From an uncultured Anaerolineales bacterium (lineage in GTDB: Bacteria; Chloroflexota; Anaerolineae; Anaerolineales; UBA11858): DNA of 64,000 bases. How positions within the stretch are numbered: the first letter of the stretch is position 1; each line of letters starts with the position of its first letter. Below the pieces are notes generated by a model that had not been told where the DNA came from, searched no databases, and was given only the letters and a program-made list of their open reading frames with translations. Of this stretch, positions 10,288 to 38,998 are shown piece after piece. Position numbers and translations under genes: made by a program. The stretch spans positions 46 to 64,045 of the forward strand of contig CAZXXW010000001.1 in NCBI GenBank assembly GCA_964644835.1, read 5' to 3'.

Positions 10288-11139
10288 TTAGGGATGAGAG
10301 AAAGAGCGTTTTTTAAACTTTGTCTGCTTGTCTCGATCCAGACAGACCAGGGCCATCAAGCGTTCTTGGAAAATACCAACGTGGCCATTCCGCTTCGTGA
10401 TCAGGGGCAGAAGCGCCTCACGAAGTTCCTCCCGCTGGTGCCCCTCAACTTGGAGCTTGTTCCGCCACCAGGAGATCAATCCATCCCAATCCGAGAACAC
10501 ATAATTTTGGCTGGTAGGGATGATGTCTACATCGGCGTAAAGCCCCATATCCAGCAGAACCGGATAGAGGAAATCCAACTGGGGCGGGATAACCCTACTC
10601 TCCCCGCGAAACCGCTGGTAGAGGGATTGCTTCCATGGAGAGACTGACCCGCTACCCAGCAAGATCGCCAGATAGTTGGTCAGGGGCAGCAGGGTTTCCA
10701 GGAGAACGTCAATCTGCTTCACGTTGTAGAGCGAAAACGAAGCAAAAATCAATTGGAAGGGGGCAGCTTCTCTTATGAGGGAAAGACAATCCTCAATTTT
10801 TTGCGGAAGGACCTGGCTGTTCTTGTGCCCTCCCCGTTTTCGCTTTTCGTTCAAAATTTCCCGCATGCCCGAGGAAGGTTCGACGGCAATGAGACGGTCT
10901 GCTTTCTGCGCCAGCGGGATGGTGAAAGCCCCTGTCCCCGCACCAATTTCCAAGACCTGTGCTCCCCTGCCGAGAAGCGGTTGAAGATAGGGAAGCCCAT
11001 TTTCTACGTAATCGTTTTCTCGAACCCAGGTTTGATACCAACCCGCAGCTTTTTTCCAGTGCTGCGCGTCGTGTTCAGATCGATCCTGTCGACAAAGCTC
11101 GATTTGATCTTTCCAGCGTTCAAGGGCTGTCGTCATCAA
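10288..11139 (-). CDS. Class I SAM-dependent methyltransferase
   Basis: 283 aa. Motif I is VLEIGAGTGAFTIPLA, followed by the acidic loop LIAVEPS. Confidence 0.8.
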   Translation of the reverse strand: MMTTALERWKDQIELCRQDRSEHDAQHWKKAAGWYQTWVRENDYVENGLPYLQPLLGRGAQVLEIGAGTGAFTIPLAQKADRLIAVEPSSGMREILNEKRKRGGHKNSQVLPQKIEDCLSLIREAAPFQLIFASFSLYNVKQIDVLLETLLPLTNYLAILLGSGSVSPWKQSLYQRFRGESRVIPPQLDFLYPVLLDMGLYADVDIIPTSQNYVFSDWDGLISWWRNKLQVEGHQREELREALLPLITKRNGHVGIFQERLMALVCLDRDKQTKFKKRSFSHP

Positions 11140-11357
11140 TTCACTCCTGCATACACGCCACTATTACCAAAGAATGTTATTGCAATTATATGCAACAGAT
11201 ATCAAACGCAAAAATTATATGTGATGATTAAAGTTTCCGCAAGACAAGCTGTTCAGCAATTTCATCTTCATCTTTGGTACAATTACGCCGTTCAAAGTAT
11301 AGAAAAGCATCGCGGTCGCAGTGACCAAACTCAACCCACAAGCAACCAGCGTAGATT

Positions 11358-24650: not shown

Positions 24651-24722
24651 GCCACCGTAGCTCAATGGTAGAGCAATCGCTTCGTAAGCGATAGGTTATG
24701 GGTTCGATTCCCATCGGTGGCT
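24651..24722 (+). tRNA. tRNA-Thr (anticodon CGU)
   Basis: Hand-folded cloverleaf: acceptor GCCACCG/CGGTGGC, D arm GCTC-AATGGTA-GAGC, anticodon arm ATCGC-TTCGTAA-GCGAT, variable loop AGGTT, T arm ATGGG-TTCGATT-CCCAT, discriminator T. No CCA is encoded. Confidence 0.9.
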
Positions 24723-24766
24723 CTTTTCGCGTCGAAAAGTTCATCAACTTCCAGTATAATTCTTCT

Positions 24767-27536: not shown

Positions 27537-30233
27537 ATGAAATCAAACCTGCTCAAGAATGACCTCGGCCTGACGTTAATGGCCCTGTATATTCTCTTCA
27601 TGGGCCCTCTCATCCTTGCCATCGTGGTCATCGCTTACAACACCCAAGCACGCCTGGAAGAAAACATCAAAGCAGCAGATTTTGCTCTGGCCCGATCAAT
27701 CGCCCAGGCGACCGACCTGTCGATGCGCAATGCGATGAAAACGACTCGCGGGTTAAAATCTTATTCTGCGGTGATGGATGCAGACGTCGATGAAATGGAG
27801 ATTCTCTTTAGCACGGTGATGCAGTCCCGACCCGAAACCGATCTGGTCTACCGCCTGGACGAGAACGGCTTGATGGAATTTCATTATCCCATCGGGCCGC
27901 CAAGGACAATCGGAGCAGATTTCTCCTCGACAGTTTTTTTTCAACGCGCCCAAGTGACCACCAAGCCGCTGATCTCCAAGGGCTACATCTCACCAACGAC
28001 GGCCCACCCCGTAGCAACAGCGGCGATGCCTCTACGAGATCAATACGGCAATTTCACCGGCGTTGTCGCCTTAGATATCGAACTGAACGCCTTTAGCCAA
28101 AACCTAGTCAGAATTTCTCAAGAATACAAAGCGTCGGAGGGATTCGAGGTCGCCATCATTGATTCCGGTAATCAAATTGTCGCCCACCCCAACGGAGATC
28201 AATTGCTTGCCGATTTCCCCCAAACGTTGGACGCGATCACGGAACCCGTCCTTCTCGGGATTGCAAATACGGGAATCAGCGTCGATCAAAACGGCACCGA
28301 GAGGCTCTACAGTTACGTGCCGATTTCCAGTGCCGGATGGGGCGTCATCGTCAGCCGCCCGACGGCAAAAGCGTTTGCAACGCCGCGCACGTTCTTCCGG
28401 GGCGCATTGGTCGCATCGGTTCTTGTTCTGGCCGCAGGGATTTTCTTCTGGCTTCGGCTAACCCAACTCGTCATCCGTCCGCTGGGATTAATGACCAAGT
28501 ACAGCCAAGCGATCGGCCAAACAGAAGTGGGAATCGCCGAACAAAAGGGAGCGGTAACAACATTAGCTGCACGGAGCGATCAAATGGGCCACCTCGCCCG
28601 CAGCCTGTTACGCATGGAAGAGGCGATCCAGGCGAGGCTGAAAGAACAATCGACTTTGCTGCATACCAGCGCCTCGGTCGTCTCCACGCTGGATCGCGAA
28701 ACGGTGCTCAATCGCATCTTGGAGCAAGTCGAGCACCTACTTGATGTCAAGATGAGCGCCATCGTTGTTTTGAACGAACGAGAGGGCTTCTTTTACGCTC
28801 AGGCAAGCCGGGGCTTACCTCAGGATTATGTCGATGAAATCGCTATCGATGCCGGAGAACCCTATTCGGTCACCACGCAGGCGATCCATAGCGGGGGGCC
28901 CTTCCAAATCAGCGATGTCCAAAAAAGGCAAGACTTCAAGCGACTGCGCTCGCGAGCTCAAATCGCCGGCTATCGCTCCATCCTCGCCATTCCGCTGAAA
29001 ACGCTCTACGCCCCTCCTTCAGCGCTGTTGATCTTCCATCCCGAACCACGCTTCTTCAACGAGCATGAGATCACCCTGCTCTCGAATTTTGCCAATCACG
29101 CCACGATGGCCATCGAAAACGCAGCCCTCTACAGCCGCAGCGATATGCGCTTACAGGAACAGACCCGCCGTCTCGAGGCGTTGATTCAATCGATCAACGA
29201 CGGAATCATCCTGGAGGGGCCCGATGGTCATGTCATCTATGCCAACCGGCGGATCAACGAACTGACAGGCTTAAGCCATCGCCAGATCAGCGGTGCGACA
29301 ATCGAGACGATCTTCGACCACATCATCGCGATGACCAAGGAGCCCGAAAAAGAAGCGGGGAAAATTTACGCCGCCCTAAAAGAAGATGCCGAACGCGAAA
29401 TAGAGATGTCATTGGAATTTCAAGGTCGTTCTATCCAGCTTCGCCTGCGTACTTTCAAGGTCACAGATGCCAAAGGCGTGATCATGGGTAGGGGTCAGCT
29501 TCTTCAGGATATAACCGCTTATCACGAACTCGATCGGATGAAGTCGAATCTGATCGCCACAGTTTCTCACGAGTTGCGCACCCCGCTGGCATCGATCAAA
29601 GGCTATGCTACCACGCTTCTGGCCGACGATGTCGAGTGGGACCCCCAATCCCAACAAGAATTTCTCCAAATCATCTCGGATGAATCCACACAGTTGAGCA
29701 AGCTGGTCAGCGATTTGCTTGACCTATCACGCATTGAGGCGGGCAGTCTGGAAGTTAAACGACAAACCTGCCAACTGGAAGACCTGATCGATAATGCTAT
29801 CCGCAGGGTCAATCCGAAACCGGCGGAGCAAAACATCCATGTCGAAATTCCTGCCGATTTCCCCTCCCTGCAAGTCGATCCCAGACGTATGGAGGTCGTC
29901 CTGCGCAACTTGATCGAAAACGCGTCCAAATATGCGGGCGACGAATCGTCCATTTACATCAACGCGACATACAACCCGGAAAATGTGATCATCAAGGTGG
30001 AAGACACCGGCCCCGGTATTCCAGAAAGCGAACGCAAAAACATCTTCAACAGTTTTTACCAGCTCGACAATACCAGTATCAACCAGTCAGTCTCGGGGTC
30101 TGGCTTGGGCCTGACCATCTGCCAGGGCTTCGTCCAGGCTCACGGCGGCGACATATGGGTTGAACCCAAGGAACAAGGCGCCTGCTTCGTCATCGCCTTA
30201 CCGAATCAACCCGAAGAGGAGATATCCAAATGA
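27537..30233 (+). CDS. Sensor histidine kinase (TM - Cache-like extracytoplasmic domain - TM/HAMP - GAF - PAS - HisKA - HATPase)
   Basis: 898 aa with two TM segments flanking a ~270 aa domain. The H-box is SHELRTPL. The N box is NLIENASKY. G boxes are DTGPGI and GSGLGLTI. Confidence 0.9.
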   Translation: MKSNLLKNDLGLTLMALYILFMGPLILAIVVIAYNTQARLEENIKAADFALARSIAQATDLSMRNAMKTTRGLKSYSAVMDADVDEMEILFSTVMQSRPETDLVYRLDENGLMEFHYPIGPPRTIGADFSSTVFFQRAQVTTKPLISKGYISPTTAHPVATAAMPLRDQYGNFTGVVALDIELNAFSQNLVRISQEYKASEGFEVAIIDSGNQIVAHPNGDQLLADFPQTLDAITEPVLLGIANTGISVDQNGTERLYSYVPISSAGWGVIVSRPTAKAFATPRTFFRGALVASVLVLAAGIFFWLRLTQLVIRPLGLMTKYSQAIGQTEVGIAEQKGAVTTLAARSDQMGHLARSLLRMEEAIQARLKEQSTLLHTSASVVSTLDRETVLNRILEQVEHLLDVKMSAIVVLNEREGFFYAQASRGLPQDYVDEIAIDAGEPYSVTTQAIHSGGPFQISDVQKRQDFKRLRSRAQIAGYRSILAIPLKTLYAPPSALLIFHPEPRFFNEHEITLLSNFANHATMAIENAALYSRSDMRLQEQTRRLEALIQSINDGIILEGPDGHVIYANRRINELTGLSHRQISGATIETIFDHIIAMTKEPEKEAGKIYAALKEDAEREIEMSLEFQGRSIQLRLRTFKVTDAKGVIMGRGQLLQDITAYHELDRMKSNLIATVSHELRTPLASIKGYATTLLADDVEWDPQSQQEFLQIISDESTQLSKLVSDLLDLSRIEAGSLEVKRQTCQLEDLIDNAIRRVNPKPAEQNIHVEIPADFPSLQVDPRRMEVVLRNLIENASKYAGDESSIYINATYNPENVIIKVEDTGPGIPESERKNIFNSFYQLDNTSINQSVSGSGLGLTICQGFVQAHGGDIWVEPKEQGACFVIALPNQPEEEISK

Positions 30234-30928
30234 GCAACCCAATCGTTCTAGTTGTAGACGACGAAAAAACGATCCGTGATTTCGTGCGCCGGAACTTAGA
30301 GGTGCGCAATTTTGGCGTTGTCACTGCCGATAACGGCATCGACGCCCTGATGATCTTCAATTCTCAGAATATCGACCTGGTTATCCTCGACCTGATGATG
30401 CCGCGCCTCGACGGTCTCGAAACCACCCGCCGCATCCGCCAGCACTCCACCGTGCCGATCATCATTCTCACCGCCCTGGACGATGAAAGCGACAAGATCC
30501 GCGCCTTCGAGCTTGGCGCCGACGATTATCTGACCAAGCCTTTTGGTGTCGGAGAATTATTGGCTCGCGTCAAGGCGGTCCTCCGCCGAACAACGTGGAC
30601 CCAGACTCCCCTGCGGCAGGGGCACATCGTCCATGGGAATATCCGCGTTGATCTGGCCCGGCATGAGGTCCTCGTTCGGGGTCAAAAGGTAGAGTTGACC
30701 CCAACAGAATTTGACCTCCTTGTCTATCTGATGGAACACGCCGGAAAAGTTCTCCCTCACGAAGCGATTCTCAAAAAGGTGTGGGGGCCGGAATACGGCG
30801 AGGAGACCGAATACCTGCGCGTCTACATGGGGCATTTGCGCCAAAAAATCGAAAAAGAGCCCACCAAGCCCGAATATTTGCTCACCGAAAGGGGCATAGG
30901 CTACCGCTTCGAGCCGCCATCATCCTAA
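30230..30928 (+). CDS. OmpR/PhoB-family (KdpE-like) response regulator
   Basis: 232 aa. The receiver has VVDDE, LVILDLMMP and the Lys context YLTKPF. The winged helix is LTPTEFDLLVYL...YLRVYMGHLRQKIE...GIGYRF. It overlaps the kinase gene by 4 nt. Confidence 0.9.
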   Translation: MSNPIVLVVDDEKTIRDFVRRNLEVRNFGVVTADNGIDALMIFNSQNIDLVILDLMMPRLDGLETTRRIRQHSTVPIIILTALDDESDKIRAFELGADDYLTKPFGVGELLARVKAVLRRTTWTQTPLRQGHIVHGNIRVDLARHEVLVRGQKVELTPTEFDLLVYLMEHAGKVLPHEAILKKVWGPEYGEETEYLRVYMGHLRQKIEKEPTKPEYLLTERGIGYRFEPPSS

Positions 30929-30976
30929 ACCGACCGATTGATTTGTGCGTTCAACCTGTTTATACTGATAGATAGG

Positions 30977-33214
30977 ATGAACGCCAAAACGCAATCACCC
31001 GCCTTTCTTCTCGGAGATTCCGGCCGTACCGCCAAACCGCTGGAAAGATATTTACCTCCCATCCCGGAGGGGGGTGCTGCTTCCTGGCTGGAGAAAAACA
31101 TCCCCCGGGGAGGGTTGATTCTGGACCCCTTTGGGGCTGCACCATCCCTGGCCCTGGAGAGCGCCCGCAGCGGCTATCGTTTCCTGGTGGCCGTCAACAA
31201 CCCGGTGCTCGCCTTCCTGCTCAAAACGACCGCTTCAGCCCCAGGCGAAGAAGACCTCAAAGCCACTCTGGCGGCGCTCAGCTCGACGCGCCTCCGGGAT
31301 ACGCGCATCGAGCCCTATATCCGCTCTCTGTACAGAACCCAATGCCGCCACTGCCAACGCAAGACGATGGCCGAAGCCTTCCTGTGGGAAAAAGAGGCCA
31401 GCGTCCCCTACGCGGTGATCTACACCTGCAAGCACTGCCAGGACGCGGGGGAATATCCCGCCAGTGAGGCCGACAAAAAGCTCGCCCAACGCTTCGGTCA
31501 AAGCGGCCTGCATCGTTCCCGCGCCCTCGAGCGGGTCGCGCCTCTCAACGACCCCGATCGCGTCCACGTCGAAGAAGCTCTAGAGACCTATCCCAACCGC
31601 GCTTTGCACATTCTCAGCACGCTGATCAACAAACTCGAGGGCTTGGATCTCTCCGATCAGAATGAGGATCTCCTCGCCGCGCTTCTCTTGACCGCCTTCG
31701 ACCGGGCGAACACATTATGGGCCCATCCGATTGAACGCGAACGTCCCAAACAACTAACCATTCCGCCAAAATACCGCGAGAACAACATCTGGTTTGCCCT
31801 GGAAGCGGCGGTGGACCAATGGCGTTCGTCTCGTTCACCCGTCCCGGTGCGCCAGCACGATGGCAGCCTGCCCCGGGAAGGTAGCGTCGCCTTGTTCAAA
31901 GGCCGGGCCAAAGAGTTGGCGCAGTTGCTGGAGGGTCTTTCCATCGACGCAGTGCTGACCATCTTGCCGCGCCCCAATCAGGCCTTCTGGACTCTCTCGG
32001 CGCTGTGGACAGGCTGGCTCTGGGGTGCGGACGCCGTCCAACCGATCAAAGCCGTACTGCGGCGGGCGCGCTACAATTGGCGCTGGCACACGGCCGCACT
32101 TCATGGTGTTCTCACCCATGTGGCTGCAACGCTCCCACCTGAAACCCCGATGTTCAGCCTAATCGGCGAAACCGAGCCCGGCTTTCTCTCCGCGGGGATG
32201 ATCGCGGCCCATCAGGCCGGATTCATCTGCCAGGGAATCGCGCTGCGTCCCGAGCAAGGTCACGCCCAAATCACCTGGACGTTCAACGATGAAAAGCAAG
32301 CTCAAGAGAAGATTATCGAGCAAACCATTCAAGAGGGAGCCGAAGACTATTTGCTCCGGCGCGGTGAACCAAGCCCTTATTTGACCCTGTTGGCCGCCGG
32401 GTTGAGCGATCACACCCGGTTCAAGCCCCTTGATCAAGAACCAAGCGAGGCCTTTCAGACTTTACAAGCGACCATCGAAACAACGATCTCATACCGGGGC
32501 AGATTCCTGCGTCTGGGCGCGACGGGAAAATCGGCCCAAAGCGGATATTGGTGGCGACAAACCGATGATCAAGCAGAACATCCCCTCCCGCTGGCCGATC
32601 GGGTCGAGATGGCCTTGGTCCGTCATTTACTTCAACATCCCGGCAGCACAACGGACTCCATCGACCAAGCCGTTTGCGAAGCCTTGCCCGGGCTGATGAC
32701 GCCGTCGCGAGAGATAGTCCAAGTTTGTCTTCAATCGTATGGCACCAGCGAAGATGGCTGCTGGCAGATCCGAGAGGAAGATCAGCCCGGCGCCCGGCGC
32801 GAGGATTTGGAGACGATGGGCAAGCACATCGACGAACTCGGCGCCAAGGTCGGCTTTGCCACCGTCAAGATGTCCGACGACCCGCTCCGCTTCCAATGGT
32901 ATAACACCGATGGGGAGATCGAATACCTGCTCTATCTGACTGCATCGGCAGTGCTCGGCAAGCTGATCCCCTACGGCCAGCCCCCCTTGAGCAAGGCGAT
33001 CATCTTCCTGCCGGGAGGGCGGGCCAACCTTGTTGCTTGCAAATTGGAGCATAACCCGGCCTTGAAAGAACAAGCCGAGGGACACTATCGATTTGTCAAG
33101 TACCGTCACCTGCGCCATCTGCTCGCCAGTCCGATGCTGACCCGGGAGAATTTAGACGATCAACTGGCCCTTGATCCGCTCACCTATACGGAACCACAAT
33201 TGCGCTTGTTCTAG
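30977..33214 (+). CDS. Zn-ribbon DNA-methyltransferase-like protein (COG1743-like) with degenerate SAM and catalytic motifs
   Basis: 745 codons from ATG 30977. LILDPFGAAPSLALESARSGYRFLVAVNNPVLAFLLK resembles the DPFaGGGsIPlEA.RLG...a.DLNPVA motif. Two CxxC pairs are present (CRHC 31343.., CKHC 31427..). DAVLTILPRPNQAFWTLSALWTGWLW sits where DAVvTDPPYyd...LSDFFYvWL is expected. Confidence 0.7.
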   Translation: MNAKTQSPAFLLGDSGRTAKPLERYLPPIPEGGAASWLEKNIPRGGLILDPFGAAPSLALESARSGYRFLVAVNNPVLAFLLKTTASAPGEEDLKATLAALSSTRLRDTRIEPYIRSLYRTQCRHCQRKTMAEAFLWEKEASVPYAVIYTCKHCQDAGEYPASEADKKLAQRFGQSGLHRSRALERVAPLNDPDRVHVEEALETYPNRALHILSTLINKLEGLDLSDQNEDLLAALLLTAFDRANTLWAHPIERERPKQLTIPPKYRENNIWFALEAAVDQWRSSRSPVPVRQHDGSLPREGSVALFKGRAKELAQLLEGLSIDAVLTILPRPNQAFWTLSALWTGWLWGADAVQPIKAVLRRARYNWRWHTAALHGVLTHVAATLPPETPMFSLIGETEPGFLSAGMIAAHQAGFICQGIALRPEQGHAQITWTFNDEKQAQEKIIEQTIQEGAEDYLLRRGEPSPYLTLLAAGLSDHTRFKPLDQEPSEAFQTLQATIETTISYRGRFLRLGATGKSAQSGYWWRQTDDQAEHPLPLADRVEMALVRHLLQHPGSTTDSIDQAVCEALPGLMTPSREIVQVCLQSYGTSEDGCWQIREEDQPGARREDLETMGKHIDELGAKVGFATVKMSDDPLRFQWYNTDGEIEYLLYLTASAVLGKLIPYGQPPLSKAIIFLPGGRANLVACKLEHNPALKEQAEGHYRFVKYRHLRHLLASPMLTRENLDDQLALDPLTYTEPQLRLF

Positions 33215-33234: not shown

Positions 33235-33263
33235 TTGACTCGCATCTGTATCATCGGTATAAT
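33235..33263 (+). promoter_or_regulatory. Consensus sigma-70 promoter for the T-box leader
   Basis: The promoter reads TTGACT (33235..33240), 17 nt, TATAAT (33258..33263). Confidence 0.7.
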
Positions 33264-33285
33264 CTCAATCAACAAGTGAAAACCA

Positions 33286-33565
33286 CGCTCCCGGGAGGAG
33301 TAGGCGGAATTGGCGCCGCTAGAGAAGGAATGGCCATAGGCTGAAAGCCACCCTCGGTCGCCCTCCACCGAAAGTCGCCCGGATTGTTCACCGAAGAAAT
33401 CCATTTTGGAGAGTAGACCGGTACGGGTAAGCCCGTTACAGCGTAACTTTGATCGGCCCAGCGCCCGTCAAAGGTCAAGAGCGCCAGCAGAAAACGTTGG
33501 CGAAGCGAGGTGGTACCGCGGAAGATCGATCCTTTCGTCCTCAGGTGGACGGAAGGATTTTTTAT
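33286..33565 (+). promoter_or_regulatory. T-box riboswitch leader, probable valine (GUC) specifier, with intrinsic terminator
   Basis: The T-box sequence is GGUGGUACCGCG (33509..33520). An F-box-like CCGUUA lies at 33433..33438. The Stem I base is CCGGG (33291..95) paired with CCCGG (33378..82). The 5' loop is AGGAGUA and the 3' loop is GAAA-GUC-G. AGAGA lies at 33321..25 and GGCUGAAAGCC at 33339..49. The terminator stem is auccuuucgucc/ggacggaaggau (33529..33558) followed by a U-run. Confidence 0.8.
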
Positions 33566-33586
33566 TTCCGCAGAGGAGTTGGAACC

Positions 33587-34954
33587 ATGCGCAGAATGAT
33601 TCTGATCACGAGCATTCTTGTTCTTCTCGCCGTAAGTTGCAGCCTGATCACGGGAGAGGGTCTCAGCGCGCAGCCACAAGGTGAGACATCCACAGCCACA
33701 GAGCAGCCCACCCGCCAGCCAGCGACCGCTACCCAACCAACACCGACGATTGTGCCCACATCCACGCGGGAACCAACGCCAAGCCCGAGCCCGGAACCGG
33801 AACTAAGTGCCACCCCAACACCCACCATCGAGGGCGCGCCGAGTGTCACCGTCCCACCGCTGAGGGCGGGACAAGATGTGACCATCACCGAGATCAAGAT
33901 GATCGACTCCGGCACCGGCTGGGGCATCGGGCATCAGGGTGGTCCCATCGATCATATCCTTACCACGAACGATGGCGGCGAGACCTGGGAAGATCGCTCA
34001 CCCCCTACCGCGCCACTGGGATCAGAAGAACAGAGCAAACGGGCCTGGGGACATTTCGCCGACGCCCAAACTGCCTGGGTCATCTTTAGCGCGGAGGGAC
34101 CGCCTCCGCTTGAACCGAAGCTGGTCTGGCGCAGTGATGATGGCGGCGAAACCTGGCGGGCCAGCAAGCCGCTGCAGCTTAGCGGCGATGAACCTTTCTT
34201 CACCCCCGAGGAACTCACCTTTGTGGATCGGGAACATGGCTGGTTGCTCGTCCACGTCGACGCGGGGATGAGCCATGATTACAGCTATCTCTACGCCACG
34301 CAGGACGGCGGCGTGAGCTGGGAACGGATCGTTGACCCTTACAAGGATGGGCTCCAAAGTCTGCTCAATACCGGGATGGCCTTTGCCGACACACAACTCG
34401 GCTGGGTGACCAAGGATAATCTCGGCGTGTTGCCGGGTGCCTTTTTCGAAGCGAGCCGCGACGGCGGCGCCACCTGGGAGGACTCTTTTTTACCCGCACC
34501 TCAGGAACTGGATTGGTTCAACGAGATCAGCCAATGCGTCACCACCGCGCCGGCATTTTTGACCTCGCGTCGGGCCGCGTTGATCGTCAAGTGCAAAACG
34601 CCGGATGAAACCGATCCGGCTGAATGGACGCATACCTATATCTACACAACCGGCGATCGCGGCGAAACCTGGGAACACGATAAGCTCCCCTCTCCGGTGG
34701 ACGATTTGATTTTCATCGATGCCCAAACAGGGTGGGCCCTGGGCCGCGATATTTACACGACCACCGATGGCGGTTTGAGCTGGGTTAAGATCAAACACGT
34801 CAACTGGGACGGGCAGTTCAGCTTCGTCGATGAGCAAACCGGCTGGGCTGTTGCCCGCGATGATGACGAAATCGCTCTGGTCACGACCACGGACGGCGGC
34901 GAGACGTGGCAACTCGTCGAGCCGAAGATGGCAAGGCGGGAAGCTGAGAATTAA
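33587..34954 (+). CDS. Lipoprotein with seven Asp-box (BNR) repeats, Ycf48/sialidase-like beta-propeller
   Basis: ATG 33587 has a GAGGAG SD. The lipobox is LLAVSC, followed by a Pro/Thr linker. Seven (S/T)xDGGxTW-type boxes are present (NDGGETW, DDGGETW, QDGGVSW, RDGGATW, GDRGETW, TDGGLSW, TDGGETW). Confidence 0.85.
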   Translation: MRRMILITSILVLLAVSCSLITGEGLSAQPQGETSTATEQPTRQPATATQPTPTIVPTSTREPTPSPSPEPELSATPTPTIEGAPSVTVPPLRAGQDVTITEIKMIDSGTGWGIGHQGGPIDHILTTNDGGETWEDRSPPTAPLGSEEQSKRAWGHFADAQTAWVIFSAEGPPPLEPKLVWRSDDGGETWRASKPLQLSGDEPFFTPEELTFVDREHGWLLVHVDAGMSHDYSYLYATQDGGVSWERIVDPYKDGLQSLLNTGMAFADTQLGWVTKDNLGVLPGAFFEASRDGGATWEDSFLPAPQELDWFNEISQCVTTAPAFLTSRRAALIVKCKTPDETDPAEWTHTYIYTTGDRGETWEHDKLPSPVDDLIFIDAQTGWALGRDIYTTTDGGLSWVKIKHVNWDGQFSFVDEQTGWAVARDDDEIALVTTTDGGETWQLVEPKMARREAEN

Positions 34955-35165
34955 ATAGGAGTTACGAAGTTCATATAGAAATCCACCGCTGAGACTCGGA
35001 GTGCGCAGAGATTTGATTAAAAAGGGACAGAAACAGCGTTTTTCTCGGCGTTTACCGAGGGTACGCAAGGCGTCTGTGTCTCGGCGGTAGATTTAGCTTC
35101 ATCTGCTTAAGTAAATCAAAATCAATCTACCTTCAATCTGACACCAATACAAACGGAGAAACGCA

Positions 35166-37877
<2,712 letters not shown>

Positions 37878-37884
37878 ATCAAAT

Positions 37885-37909
37885 GAGCCCCACTTCTGAA
37901 GTGGGGCTC
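37885..37909. terminator. Hairpin between convergent valS and 37919..38998
   Basis: The stem is gagccccactt (37885..95) paired with aagtggggctc (37899..909), with a 3-nt loop. Confidence 0.55.
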
Positions 37910-37918
37910 TCCTCATAT

Positions 37919-38998
37919 TTATTGACGTCTCAAACGCGAGTACGTCCGGGCCACGATCTGCTTGCGCAATGCCACCAGTTCGGGAAAATCGTAAAAAAAG
38001 AGTACTTTCTGCTCGGCGATGGTATCCCCATCGGGCTTGGGTTGGAGGACGAAGTACGTCCAGGATTCGGCGATATCCTCACCAGGGTTGGTGACAGCAT
38101 AATCGGTTACAAATTGGTCTTGATAACTCCAGTAGAATTCATCTAAGGCTTGATAATACGCCTCGTCATCTTCGATGTAAGTGATCTCTTCCCACTCGTC
38201 GAGAAGATCAGCCCAAAACCGCTGGACGAACAAATTGATATAAGAATTTGGCAAACTGCACCCTTCCCCGGGGAAGTATTGCGGGCAGGCAGCGAGGGCC
38301 TGCTCGTAAAGCAGATCATTCTCCGGTTCCTCGAACAATGCCAGATCAATTTCAACTTGCTCGCTATTAAGGGTCAGGAGGTGGCCAAATTCATGGATCA
38401 AGGTATAAGTCAGTTCTTCAGGATTCTGAGCGTCGACGATGTCAATCGCCAAAATCCATTTCTCCGGATCTGTGAAGTCTTGTTCGACAGCGGCCATGAC
38501 CTCATCGACACCATCGGTGAAAACGACAAAGCTCGCCAGGTCGGTGCGGTACGCTAGAGGGATCAGTTGGGTGTAATAAGCCCAAATTTTTTGGTGGGTA
38601 TCTGTATCATCTTGATAGCTCAAGAGATCATCACTAACGGTAACCTCTTCTGGGTTGACAAGCAGATCGCCGTCGATCTGATAGGTGACCAGCGTGCTTT
38701 CTGCTGTCGAGTAAAAATCTTCAGTATCCCCCTCCATTGGAACGAAAATTTCCTCGACCAGATCAAGAAATTGGGGGGCAAGGCTATCGTCGAAATCCTC
38801 GTCGAGATAACACAACTTGTCTTCGTCGTCATAGTATTCATCTTCGTAACAGTCTTCGGGAAGTTCGTAGTAACCCAATTCTTCGGTGTAATATTCTTCC
38901 CCGTACCACCAATAAGCAATATCTGGCCAATACCAATAGACGGCTATTCCCCCCAGGAGCAACGAAACGATCAAGAAAGCAAGGAATAGTTTTTTCAT
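37919..38998 (-). CDS. Membrane-anchored, highly acidic putative zinc metallopeptidase (HExxH)
   Basis: 359 aa with an N-terminal TM helix. A Tyr/Glu/Asp-rich segment follows. LIHEFGHLLT (HExxH) has a downstream NPGEDIAES, a possible third ligand. I recognise no family. Confidence 0.65.
   Translation of the reverse strand: MKKLFLAFLIVSLLLGGIAVYWYWPDIAYWWYGEEYYTEELGYYELPEDCYEDEYYDDEDKLCYLDEDFDDSLAPQFLDLVEEIFVPMEGDTEDFYSTAESTLVTYQIDGDLLVNPEEVTVSDDLLSYQDDTDTHQKIWAYYTQLIPLAYRTDLASFVVFTDGVDEVMAAVEQDFTDPEKWILAIDIVDAQNPEELTYTLIHEFGHLLTLNSEQVEIDLALFEEPENDLLYEQALAACPQYFPGEGCSLPNSYINLFVQRFWADLLDEWEEITYIEDDEAYYQALDEFYWSYQDQFVTDYAVTNPGEDIAESWTYFVLQPKPDGDTIAEQKVLFFYDFPELVALRKQIVARTYSRLRRQ

Follow-up and report, generated by a model that had tools for sequence, protein, structure and literature searches.

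The elements that define a T-box riboswitch are an S-turn, a codon followed by a stacking purine, distal T-loops, a purine-flanked Stem III, a 7-nt UGGNACC bulge, and a basal G-U pair in helix A2 (PMC7583486). Wels et al. 2008 (PMC2494555) found genes of unknown or unrelated function behind 8% of T-boxes, including the streptococcal spr0489 and str0474, listed as "Val-tRNA ligase related hypothetical," so an unusual gene behind a T-box is not new as such. We analyzed a 64-kb stretch of DNA from an uncultured Anaerolineales bacterium (contig CAZXXW010000001.1; the whole stretch is called the window here), in which a T-box leader precedes the gene for a propeller lipoprotein and, behind it, valS, the gene for valyl-tRNA synthetase. 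We consider it probable that this leader is a classical transcription-attenuation T-box riboswitch for tRNA-Val and that it controls a two-gene operon, with the propeller lipoprotein gene first and valS second. In the literature that we searched, nothing was found on T-boxes in Anaerolineae, on Ycf48-like proteins in Chloroflexi, or on an association between propellers and T-boxes.

An earlier, sequence-only reading of the window had proposed a valine-specific T-box at this position and had left two alternatives for the first gene, namely, co-regulation with valS or an insertion that separated the leader from valS. As that reading had pointed out, the first gene, which encodes a BNR propeller lipoprotein, falls outside the classes that usually make up T-box regulons (aminoacyl-tRNA synthetases, amino acid biosynthesis, and transport). 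The second gene, valS, is canonical.

The leader and its specifier codon

The Rfam T-box model, RF00230, has a gathering score of 93 bits, and a default scan of the whole window yielded no T-box at that score, the sole match being a tRNA. When 2.1 kb was then scanned locally in E-value mode, the leader matched the full length of the model (model positions 1-219) at 33279..33545, with 65.2 bits and an E value of 2.3e-13. The covariance-model search by which the T-box proposal was to be checked therefore returned a significant, full-length match, albeit one below the gathering score. Nine related leaders of the same group score 61-79 bits, the leaders of loci L004, L006, and L023 score 69-84 bits, and the window's clade overall spans 61-84 bits; more distant Anaerolineae leaders reach 89-131 bits, with those of the methyltransferase clade at 104-131 bits except for L062 at 89. 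The low RF00230 score is shared by the whole clade, and since this clade scores under the gathering threshold, default Rfam annotation misses its Val T-boxes. The other matches in the region (PyrR, mir-999, FMR1-AS1, and IRES_Bip) were rejected as chance, all having E values above 1, and the mir-999 match merely mirrors the hairpin in the spacer between the two genes.

All of the defining elements described in PMC7583486 were found in the leader at the level of sequence and alignment (Table 1), which supports its identity as a genuine T-box. The T-box sequence, the F-box-like CCGUUA, the AGGAGUA/GAA specifier loop, and the terminator that had been read from the letters all lie at, or at most 1 nt from, the positions first given for them, and the promoter scan recovered the consensus promoter that had been reported upstream of the leader.

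Twenty-one Chloroflexota leaders from upstream of valS were aligned with MAFFT (alignment A3), and pairs were counted for the Rfam consensus structure mapped onto this alignment. Among the consensus pairs, 76.7% of cells were paired, versus 35-51% when the 3' partners were slid by 1-3 columns; changes on both sides occurred in 30 of the 47 pairs, and the observed pairing or covariation score was reached in 0 of 500 shuffles. The match to the leader structure is well above chance. The closing helix of the specifier loop is 100% paired in A3, with covariation in 4/4 pairs, and Stem III, which is flanked by purines (AAGAG-CGCCAGC...GUUGGCG-AA, corresponding to RRRxG-stem-AA), is 85.5% paired, with 6/7 pairs changing on both sides. 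The antiterminator helices are 98-99% paired, the T-box element GGUGGUACCGCG is invariant, and helix A2 starts from a basal G-U pair in 16 leaders and from an A-U pair in 4. When the terminator helix, whose 5' arm overlaps the 3' strand of the antiterminator, was tested separately, it was 90.6% paired and 6 of its pairs changed on both sides. Stem II pairs poorly (47.6%) in the MAFFT alignment; the leader does contain the motifs GAAGAAA...AGUAGA (Stem II) and CGGG...CCCGUUA (F-box region), and its IIA hairpin shows no variation among the aligned leaders. In the distal part of Stem I, AGAGA and GGCUGAAAGCC are conserved, the invariant columns being A38, G39, A40, G57, T59, G60, and A63, consistent with a distal AG bulge and loop that would form interdigitated T-loops and contact the tRNA elbow.

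The covariance model places GAAAGUCG on the 3' side of the specifier loop, immediately before the closing helix, and GUC is invariant in 21/21 leaders, every one of which lies upstream of valS. These results support GUC, a valine codon, as the specifier, in agreement with the sequence-only reading; AGU, an assignment for which that reading had allowed, is not the codon that the model selects. The UGGU of the T-box bulge is likewise invariant across the 21 leaders.

Gene order downstream of the leader

Two samples were examined for gene order: 80 valS loci from GTDB species representatives and the contexts of homologues of the propeller. The propeller gene was near valS in 0 of the 80 valS loci, and only the neighborhoods of propeller homologues revealed its linkage to valS. 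Among homologues of at least 49% identity with a readable context, the lipoprotein gene lies upstream of valS in 10/10 further loci. A T-box precedes it in 8/8 of these loci with readable upstream DNA (L081, L082, L084, L085/86, L087/88, L089, L090, and L094; L083 and the P0043 locus are without upstream DNA), and GUC is found in 7/7 complete leaders, that of L081 being incomplete because its contig starts 3' of the specifier. L081, whose propeller is 87% identical, carries the 3' half of the T-box with its terminator, the propeller gene, the spacer, and the start of valS. The loci L082, L084, L085/86, and L087/88 (50-59% identity) have the order T-box(GUC), propeller gene, PhzF-family gene, and valS; L083 and the P0043 locus (49-60%) have the last three of these. 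T-box(GUC), propeller gene, and valS follow each other in L090 and L094 (49-52%), with gaps of 90 and 36 nt, and in L089 (53%) the order is T-box(GUC), propeller gene, a second, PRK13208-type valS, a V4R protein gene, a PhzF gene, and the bacterial-type valS. PhzF is absent from the window locus and L081, and nothing PhzF-like was found anywhere in the window. More remote homologues, at 38-45% identity (L091, L092, L093, and L095), had no T-box or valS nearby in 4/4 cases. In this Anaerolineae clade, the propeller gene is kept as a conserved promoter-proximal gene, often together with a gene for a PhzF-family isomerase.

The best matches of the window valS, at up to 76-85% identity, place the window in Anaerolineae (Chloroflexota), and this valS is 72-85% identical to the valS of the related propeller loci. 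Between the window and L081, the propeller gene has a ratio of nonsynonymous to synonymous substitution rates (dN/dS) of 0.17, with a dS of 0.38, which marks purifying selection, and the 3' part of the leader is 96.6% identical, so this part of the leader is more conserved than synonymous sites. The pairwise identities of propeller and valS correlate (r = 0.79 for 5 loci, giving 10 nonindependent pairs); L084 was left out of this comparison because its propeller gene is frameshifted. Given that the order recurs, that dN/dS is 0.17, and that the propeller and valS divergences correlate, the propeller gene is a long-standing, selected member of the proposed operon, with an order conserved across the Anaerolineae clade. 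Of the two alternatives left by the sequence-only reading, stable co-regulation is favored by the recurrence of this order at 49-60% propeller identity and by the signature of selection, and recent insertion did not hold up; insertion would survive only as an ancient event, one instance of the broader tendency of Anaerolineae to carry various genes between a Val T-box and valS.

Several of the related loci have features of their own. In L084 the propeller gene is split over two reading frames, as in a pseudogene or an error of metagenome assembly. L089 has two valS genes behind a single Val T-box, with an 822-aa PRK13208-type ValRS encoded directly after the propeller. The valS of L087 encodes 1,030 aa with an inserted DUF559/MTES_1575 (endonuclease-like) domain. 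L001, a metagenome-assembled genome from Suakin Deep with 76% valS identity, has a noncoding region of ~690 nt and no T-box upstream of valS, and a glucan phosphorylase-like gene lies divergently upstream of this valS region.

Exactly one T-box, located 5' of the first gene, was found per locus in the window and the related loci scanned, and a local RF00230 scan found no second T-box in the 211-nt spacer. On the + strand of the spacer, the promoter and terminator scan, which recognizes only near-consensus sigma-70 sites as promoters, found no promoter-like site (at least 9/12 matches) and no terminator-like site; the earlier description of a spacer without a second T-box or terminator is thereby confirmed. 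In L085, L090, and L094, an 11/12 promoter lies just upstream of the leader, and the only + strand terminator is that of the T-box. Between propeller gene and valS, L085 and L090 have no promoter with at least 9/12 matches, and L094 has one weak 9/12 site inside the propeller gene. Intergenic gaps in the relatives measure 24-110 nt, and the next hairpin terminator past that of the T-box comes after valS. Co-transcription of the propeller gene and valS thus appears well supported by inference from these sequences.

The spacer itself contains a long imperfect hairpin, the arms of which are kept in L081, where a 19-nt inner piece is missing; this hairpin could be a processing or stability element. 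Three other explanations for the spacer were tried and rejected: its fold is unexceptional (z = -0.9), neither the rest of the window nor the 80 valS loci contain further copies that would mark it as a repeat family or a miniature inverted-repeat transposable element, and it has no translated similarity to PhzF that would mark the remnant of a deleted gene.

We also sorted other Chloroflexota valS loci with a Val T-box by the gene between leader and valS. The leader directly adjoins valS in 7 loci (L004, L007, L008, L011, L014, L018, and L023). A class I S-adenosylmethionine (SAM)-methyltransferase gene intervenes in 6 (L005, L009, L012, L015, L027, and L062), a PhzF gene only in L002, an alpha-amylase-family gene in L003, and a 156-aa open reading frame (ORF) in L006. 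In most such loci the inserted gene is at most 60 nt from valS or overlaps it. Since several families occupy it, the slot between terminator and valS repeatedly holds unrelated genes in Anaerolineae. In L023, a flavin mononucleotide (FMN) riboswitch (91.8 bits) lies immediately 3' of valS.

The propeller gene starts nineteen bases past the terminator, with an AGAGGAG ribosome-binding site 8 nt 5' of its ATG. The sequence-only reading, which had called its product Ycf48/sialidase-like, was right on the 455 aa and the seven Asp-boxes, but the start that it implied, at 33588, is off by one from the actual ATG at 33587. From the N to the C terminus, the protein consists of a signal peptide (lipobox LAVSC), ~70 residues of Pro/Thr-rich linker, and a domain with Asp-boxes at residues 127, 183, 238, 290, 355, 392, and 434, over which Pfam reports BNR, PSII_BNR, Sortilin-Vps10, and BNR_2. 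AlphaFold, given a 44-sequence alignment, returned a confident all-beta model (predicted local distance difference test, 93.5; predicted template modeling score, 0.91). Among solved structures, Ycf48 is the best match in both fold and sequence (template modeling [TM] score of ~0.6, 16% identity); GH74 xyloglucanases and the Vps10 domain of sortilin are also among the nearest. Because the lipobox cysteine is nearly invariant and two propeller cysteines are invariant in the homologue alignment, an extracytoplasmic location is suggested for the protein. The NCBIfam Ycf48 equivalog model PRK13684 scored 46.4 bits against a cutoff of 326 and covered residues 96-249 only, so the protein is not an equivalog of Ycf48, and no photosystem context was found in the window or in the related loci examined. 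A low valine content as a signature of starvation was considered and rejected, as 5.3% valine is ordinary.

A homologue with 42% identity and no link to valS, in L091, is encoded directly 5' of a cytochrome c oxidase operon. Its position beside an oxidase operon recalls, by analogy, the role of Ycf48 as an assembly factor for a membrane complex.

Weighing the proposed two-gene operon

In the attenuation that we propose, transcription would start at the promoter upstream of the leader, and Stem I would offer GUC to the anticodon of tRNA-Val(GAC), presumably the ligand. The 3'-ACCA end of an uncharged tRNA would pair with UGGU in the T-box bulge and stabilize the antiterminator, so that RNA polymerase would pass the terminator into the lipoprotein gene and then valS; a charged tRNA would be unable to pair with UGGU, the terminator would form, and both genes would stay low. 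A switch of this kind follows the textbook scheme, and there is no novelty in its mechanism. What is new is limited to the clade of sub-threshold leaders, the conserved, noncanonical operon member, and the permissive insertion slot.

Several observations weigh against this reading. The window leader falls under the Rfam gathering score (65 versus 93 bits), although this is a threshold issue and no element is missing. The closest GTDB relative by valS, L001, has neither the T-box nor the propeller. The propeller has no recognizable tie to valine (5.3% Val; nearest folds Ycf48, GH74, and sortilin), and the unrelated genes in the same slot elsewhere fit hitch-hiking without functional meaning. 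The 211-nt spacer, with its conserved hairpin, is far longer than the gaps of the relatives, and it could hide a nonconsensus promoter or a processing site. As for the specifier, the +1 frame reads UCG, UCA, or UCC, which are serine codons, in all leaders, and the case against this frame rests only on geometry, the downstream gene, and the discriminator base. Finally, the sole tRNA in the window is tRNA-Thr(CGU) and not the presumed ligand, tRNA-Val(GAC).

A further-reaching possibility, which we regard as unlikely, is that the tRNA-Val-controlled propeller acts in the uptake of valine or other branched-chain amino acids, perhaps through the capture of extracellular peptides, as Ycf48 and sortilin propellers bind peptides. 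A broader version of this idea treats the slot upstream of valS as a recurrent landing site from which unrelated genes are recruited into control by tRNA charging, with at least five gene families involved across Anaerolineae. A role in valine or peptide acquisition is no more likely than neutral hitch-hiking, in which the gene would simply profit from a convenient promoter. If true, such a role would extend T-box regulons by a new functional class and provide a first functional handle on a large, uncharacterized family. The cargo of the slot (propeller, PhzF, SAM methyltransferase, amylase-family protein, small ORF, and second valS) illustrates that T-box regulons are able to expand by insertion past the terminator. 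Our working view is that the propeller is stably co-regulated within the operon and that any biochemical link between it and valine is indirect. Its persistence as the first tRNA-Val-controlled gene through ~50% sequence divergence provides a testable clue to its physiology, namely, that valine limitation would be expected to induce it.

It is rather improbable that the T-box governs the propeller gene only and that valS is transcribed from its own promoter, in the spacer or the 3' end of the propeller gene, the two genes being neighbors that are not co-regulated. A spacer well beyond the 24-110 nt of the relatives, the conservation of its hairpin in L081, the restriction of the promoter scan to near-consensus sigma-70 sites, and the weak site inside the propeller gene of L094 would all suit such a promoter, but neither a promoter-like site nor a + strand terminator was seen from 33600 to 35165, and the spacer hairpin lacks a U-run. 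Moreover, the specifier is for valine and valS is the only valine-related gene, the 7 Chloroflexota loci listed above have this type of leader immediately before valS, and the distance from the propeller gene to its next neighbor is only 36 nt in L094 and 24 nt in L089. A second T-box was seen at no locus.

We give very little credence to a specifier other than valine, by which the leader would answer another tRNA through UCG in the +1 frame or AGU in the -1 frame, both serine. The +1 frame does encode serine in every leader, and the -1 frame in the window is AGU; however, the base before GUC is A, G, U, or absent and the base after it is G, A, or C among the 21 leaders, and the variability of the preceding base rules out a conserved AGU reading. 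An invariant UGGU suits the A73 discriminator base of tRNA-Val, whereas bacterial tRNA-Ser has G73. All of these leaders are located upstream of valS, and GUC with one purine directly before the closing helix, as placed by the covariance model, is the canonical geometry described in PMC7583486.

A recent, accidental insertion of the propeller gene into the T-box-valS unit, confined to this genome and without evolutionary stability, is hardly tenable: the absence of the gene from the 80 GTDB valS loci, the different genes or none in the slot of other lineages, and the genes upstream of the window leader (a histidine kinase, a response regulator, and a 758-aa ORF, unlike the miaA, PlsY, and lactamase_B context of relatives) would fit it, but it is already contradicted by the comparative data, with propellers of 49-87% identity upstream of valS in 10 additional loci, a T-box wherever upstream DNA could be read, the low dN/dS, and the correlated divergences.

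Surrounding features and known systems

The coordinates of the locus and of features at related loci are collected in Table 1. The GC-rich hairpin behind valS is likely the 3' end of the operon. Upstream, a leucine-rich ORF of 758 aa (13% Leu), with zero Pfam or NCBIfam matches, ends 20 nt 5' of the T-box promoter. The tRNA-Thr(CGU) of the window lies 8.6 kb upstream of the Val T-box on the same strand, and a tRNA-Thr(CGU) is also found 0.07-1 kb 5' of the Val T-box in 5 distant Anaerolineae loci. Between this tRNA and the T-box, the window has the histidine kinase, the response regulator, and the 758-aa ORF, and the spacing looks like a remnant of shared synteny that was split by insertion.

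Table 1. Coordinates of features in the window and at related loci
Feature	Sequence	Position	Strand	Evidence or remark
tRNA-Thr(CGU)	Window	24651..24723	+	
Histidine kinase gene	Window	27537..30233		
Response regulator gene	Window	30230..30928		
758-aa ORF	Window	30938..33214	+	
Sigma-70-type promoter TTGACT-17-TATAAT	Window	33235..33263	+	11/12 consensus matches, promoter scan
T-box leader RNA (Stem I, Stem II, IIA/B region with F-box, Stem III, antiterminator/terminator)	Window	33279..33568	+	RF00230 and covariation
AGGAGUA, 5' part of Stem I specifier loop	Window	33296..33302	+	
GAA-A-GUC-G-CCCGG, 3' side of specifier loop, then closing helix	Window	33370..33382	+	
Specifier codon GUC (valine)	Window	33374..33376	+	Purine G33377 next, then closing helix CCCG(G) 33378..33382
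F-box CCGUUA	Window	33432..33437	+	
T-box sequence GGTGGTACCGCG	Window	33509..33520	+	Sequence reading
T-box element GGUGGUACCGCG, with 7-nt bulge UGGUACC, UGGU facing the tRNA 3'-ACCA end	Window	33509..33520	+	Invariant in alignment
Intrinsic terminator: 13-bp stem 33528..33559, 6-nt loop, U-run TTTTTTATTT	Window	33528..33568	+	Terminator scan
Propeller lipoprotein gene, 455 aa	Window	33587..34954	+	Pfam, Asp-boxes, AlphaFold, dN/dS
Propeller-valS spacer, 211 nt	Window	34955..35165	+	Imperfect hairpin ~34981..35092 without U-run
valS, valyl-tRNA synthetase, 903 aa	Window	35166..37877	+	Pfam tRNA-synt_1, Anticodon_1, Val_tRNA-synt_C
GC-rich palindromic hairpin, between valS and convergent gene 37919..38998	Window	37885..37909	.	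Terminator-like matches, both strands
Noncoding region upstream of valS	L001	5314..6000		
tRNA-Thr(CGU)	L005	4653..4725		
tRNA-Thr(CGU)	L015	4076..4147		
tRNA-Thr(CGU)	L018	5594..5667		
tRNA-Thr(CGU)	L027	4030..4102		
tRNA-Thr(CGU)	L062	4058..4130		
FMN riboswitch	L023	8760..8899		
Split in propeller gene	L084	~5590		
valS with inserted domain	L087	7308..10400		
Two valS genes	L089	6353..8821 and 10513..11329		
Propeller homologue	L091	5001..6326		
Cytochrome c oxidase operon (COX2, COX1, COX3, CtaG)	L091	6535..10872		

Among known T-box systems, the window leader shares with the transcriptional T-boxes of RF00230, such as those of Bacillus subtilis tyrS and the Firmicute valS leaders, a long Stem I with a kink-turn region, an S-turn specifier loop (AGUA/GAA) with codon and purine, and, at the distal end, the AG bulge and loop. 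It differs from typical members in its score (61-84 bits in its clade), in the extra sequence between F-box and Stem III, and in its Anaerolineae host. Unlike in the tyrS and valS systems, the first regulated gene would encode an exported propeller lipoprotein rather than a synthetase. The streptococcal spr0489 and str0474 leaders come closer in this respect, since there, too, a Val T-box is followed by a gene without an obvious role in amino acid metabolism; going by description, the cargo of the window is set apart as a 455-aa secreted Asp-box propeller that is conserved in its clade and often accompanied by a PhzF-family gene. As for the protein, Ycf48/HCF136, a photosystem II assembly lipoprotein (PDB 2xbg and 5ojp), is likewise a seven-bladed Asp-box propeller and, in bacteria, a lipoprotein, whereas the window protein, at 16% identity and a TM score of ~0.6, adds a Pro/Thr-rich linker and two invariant cysteines.

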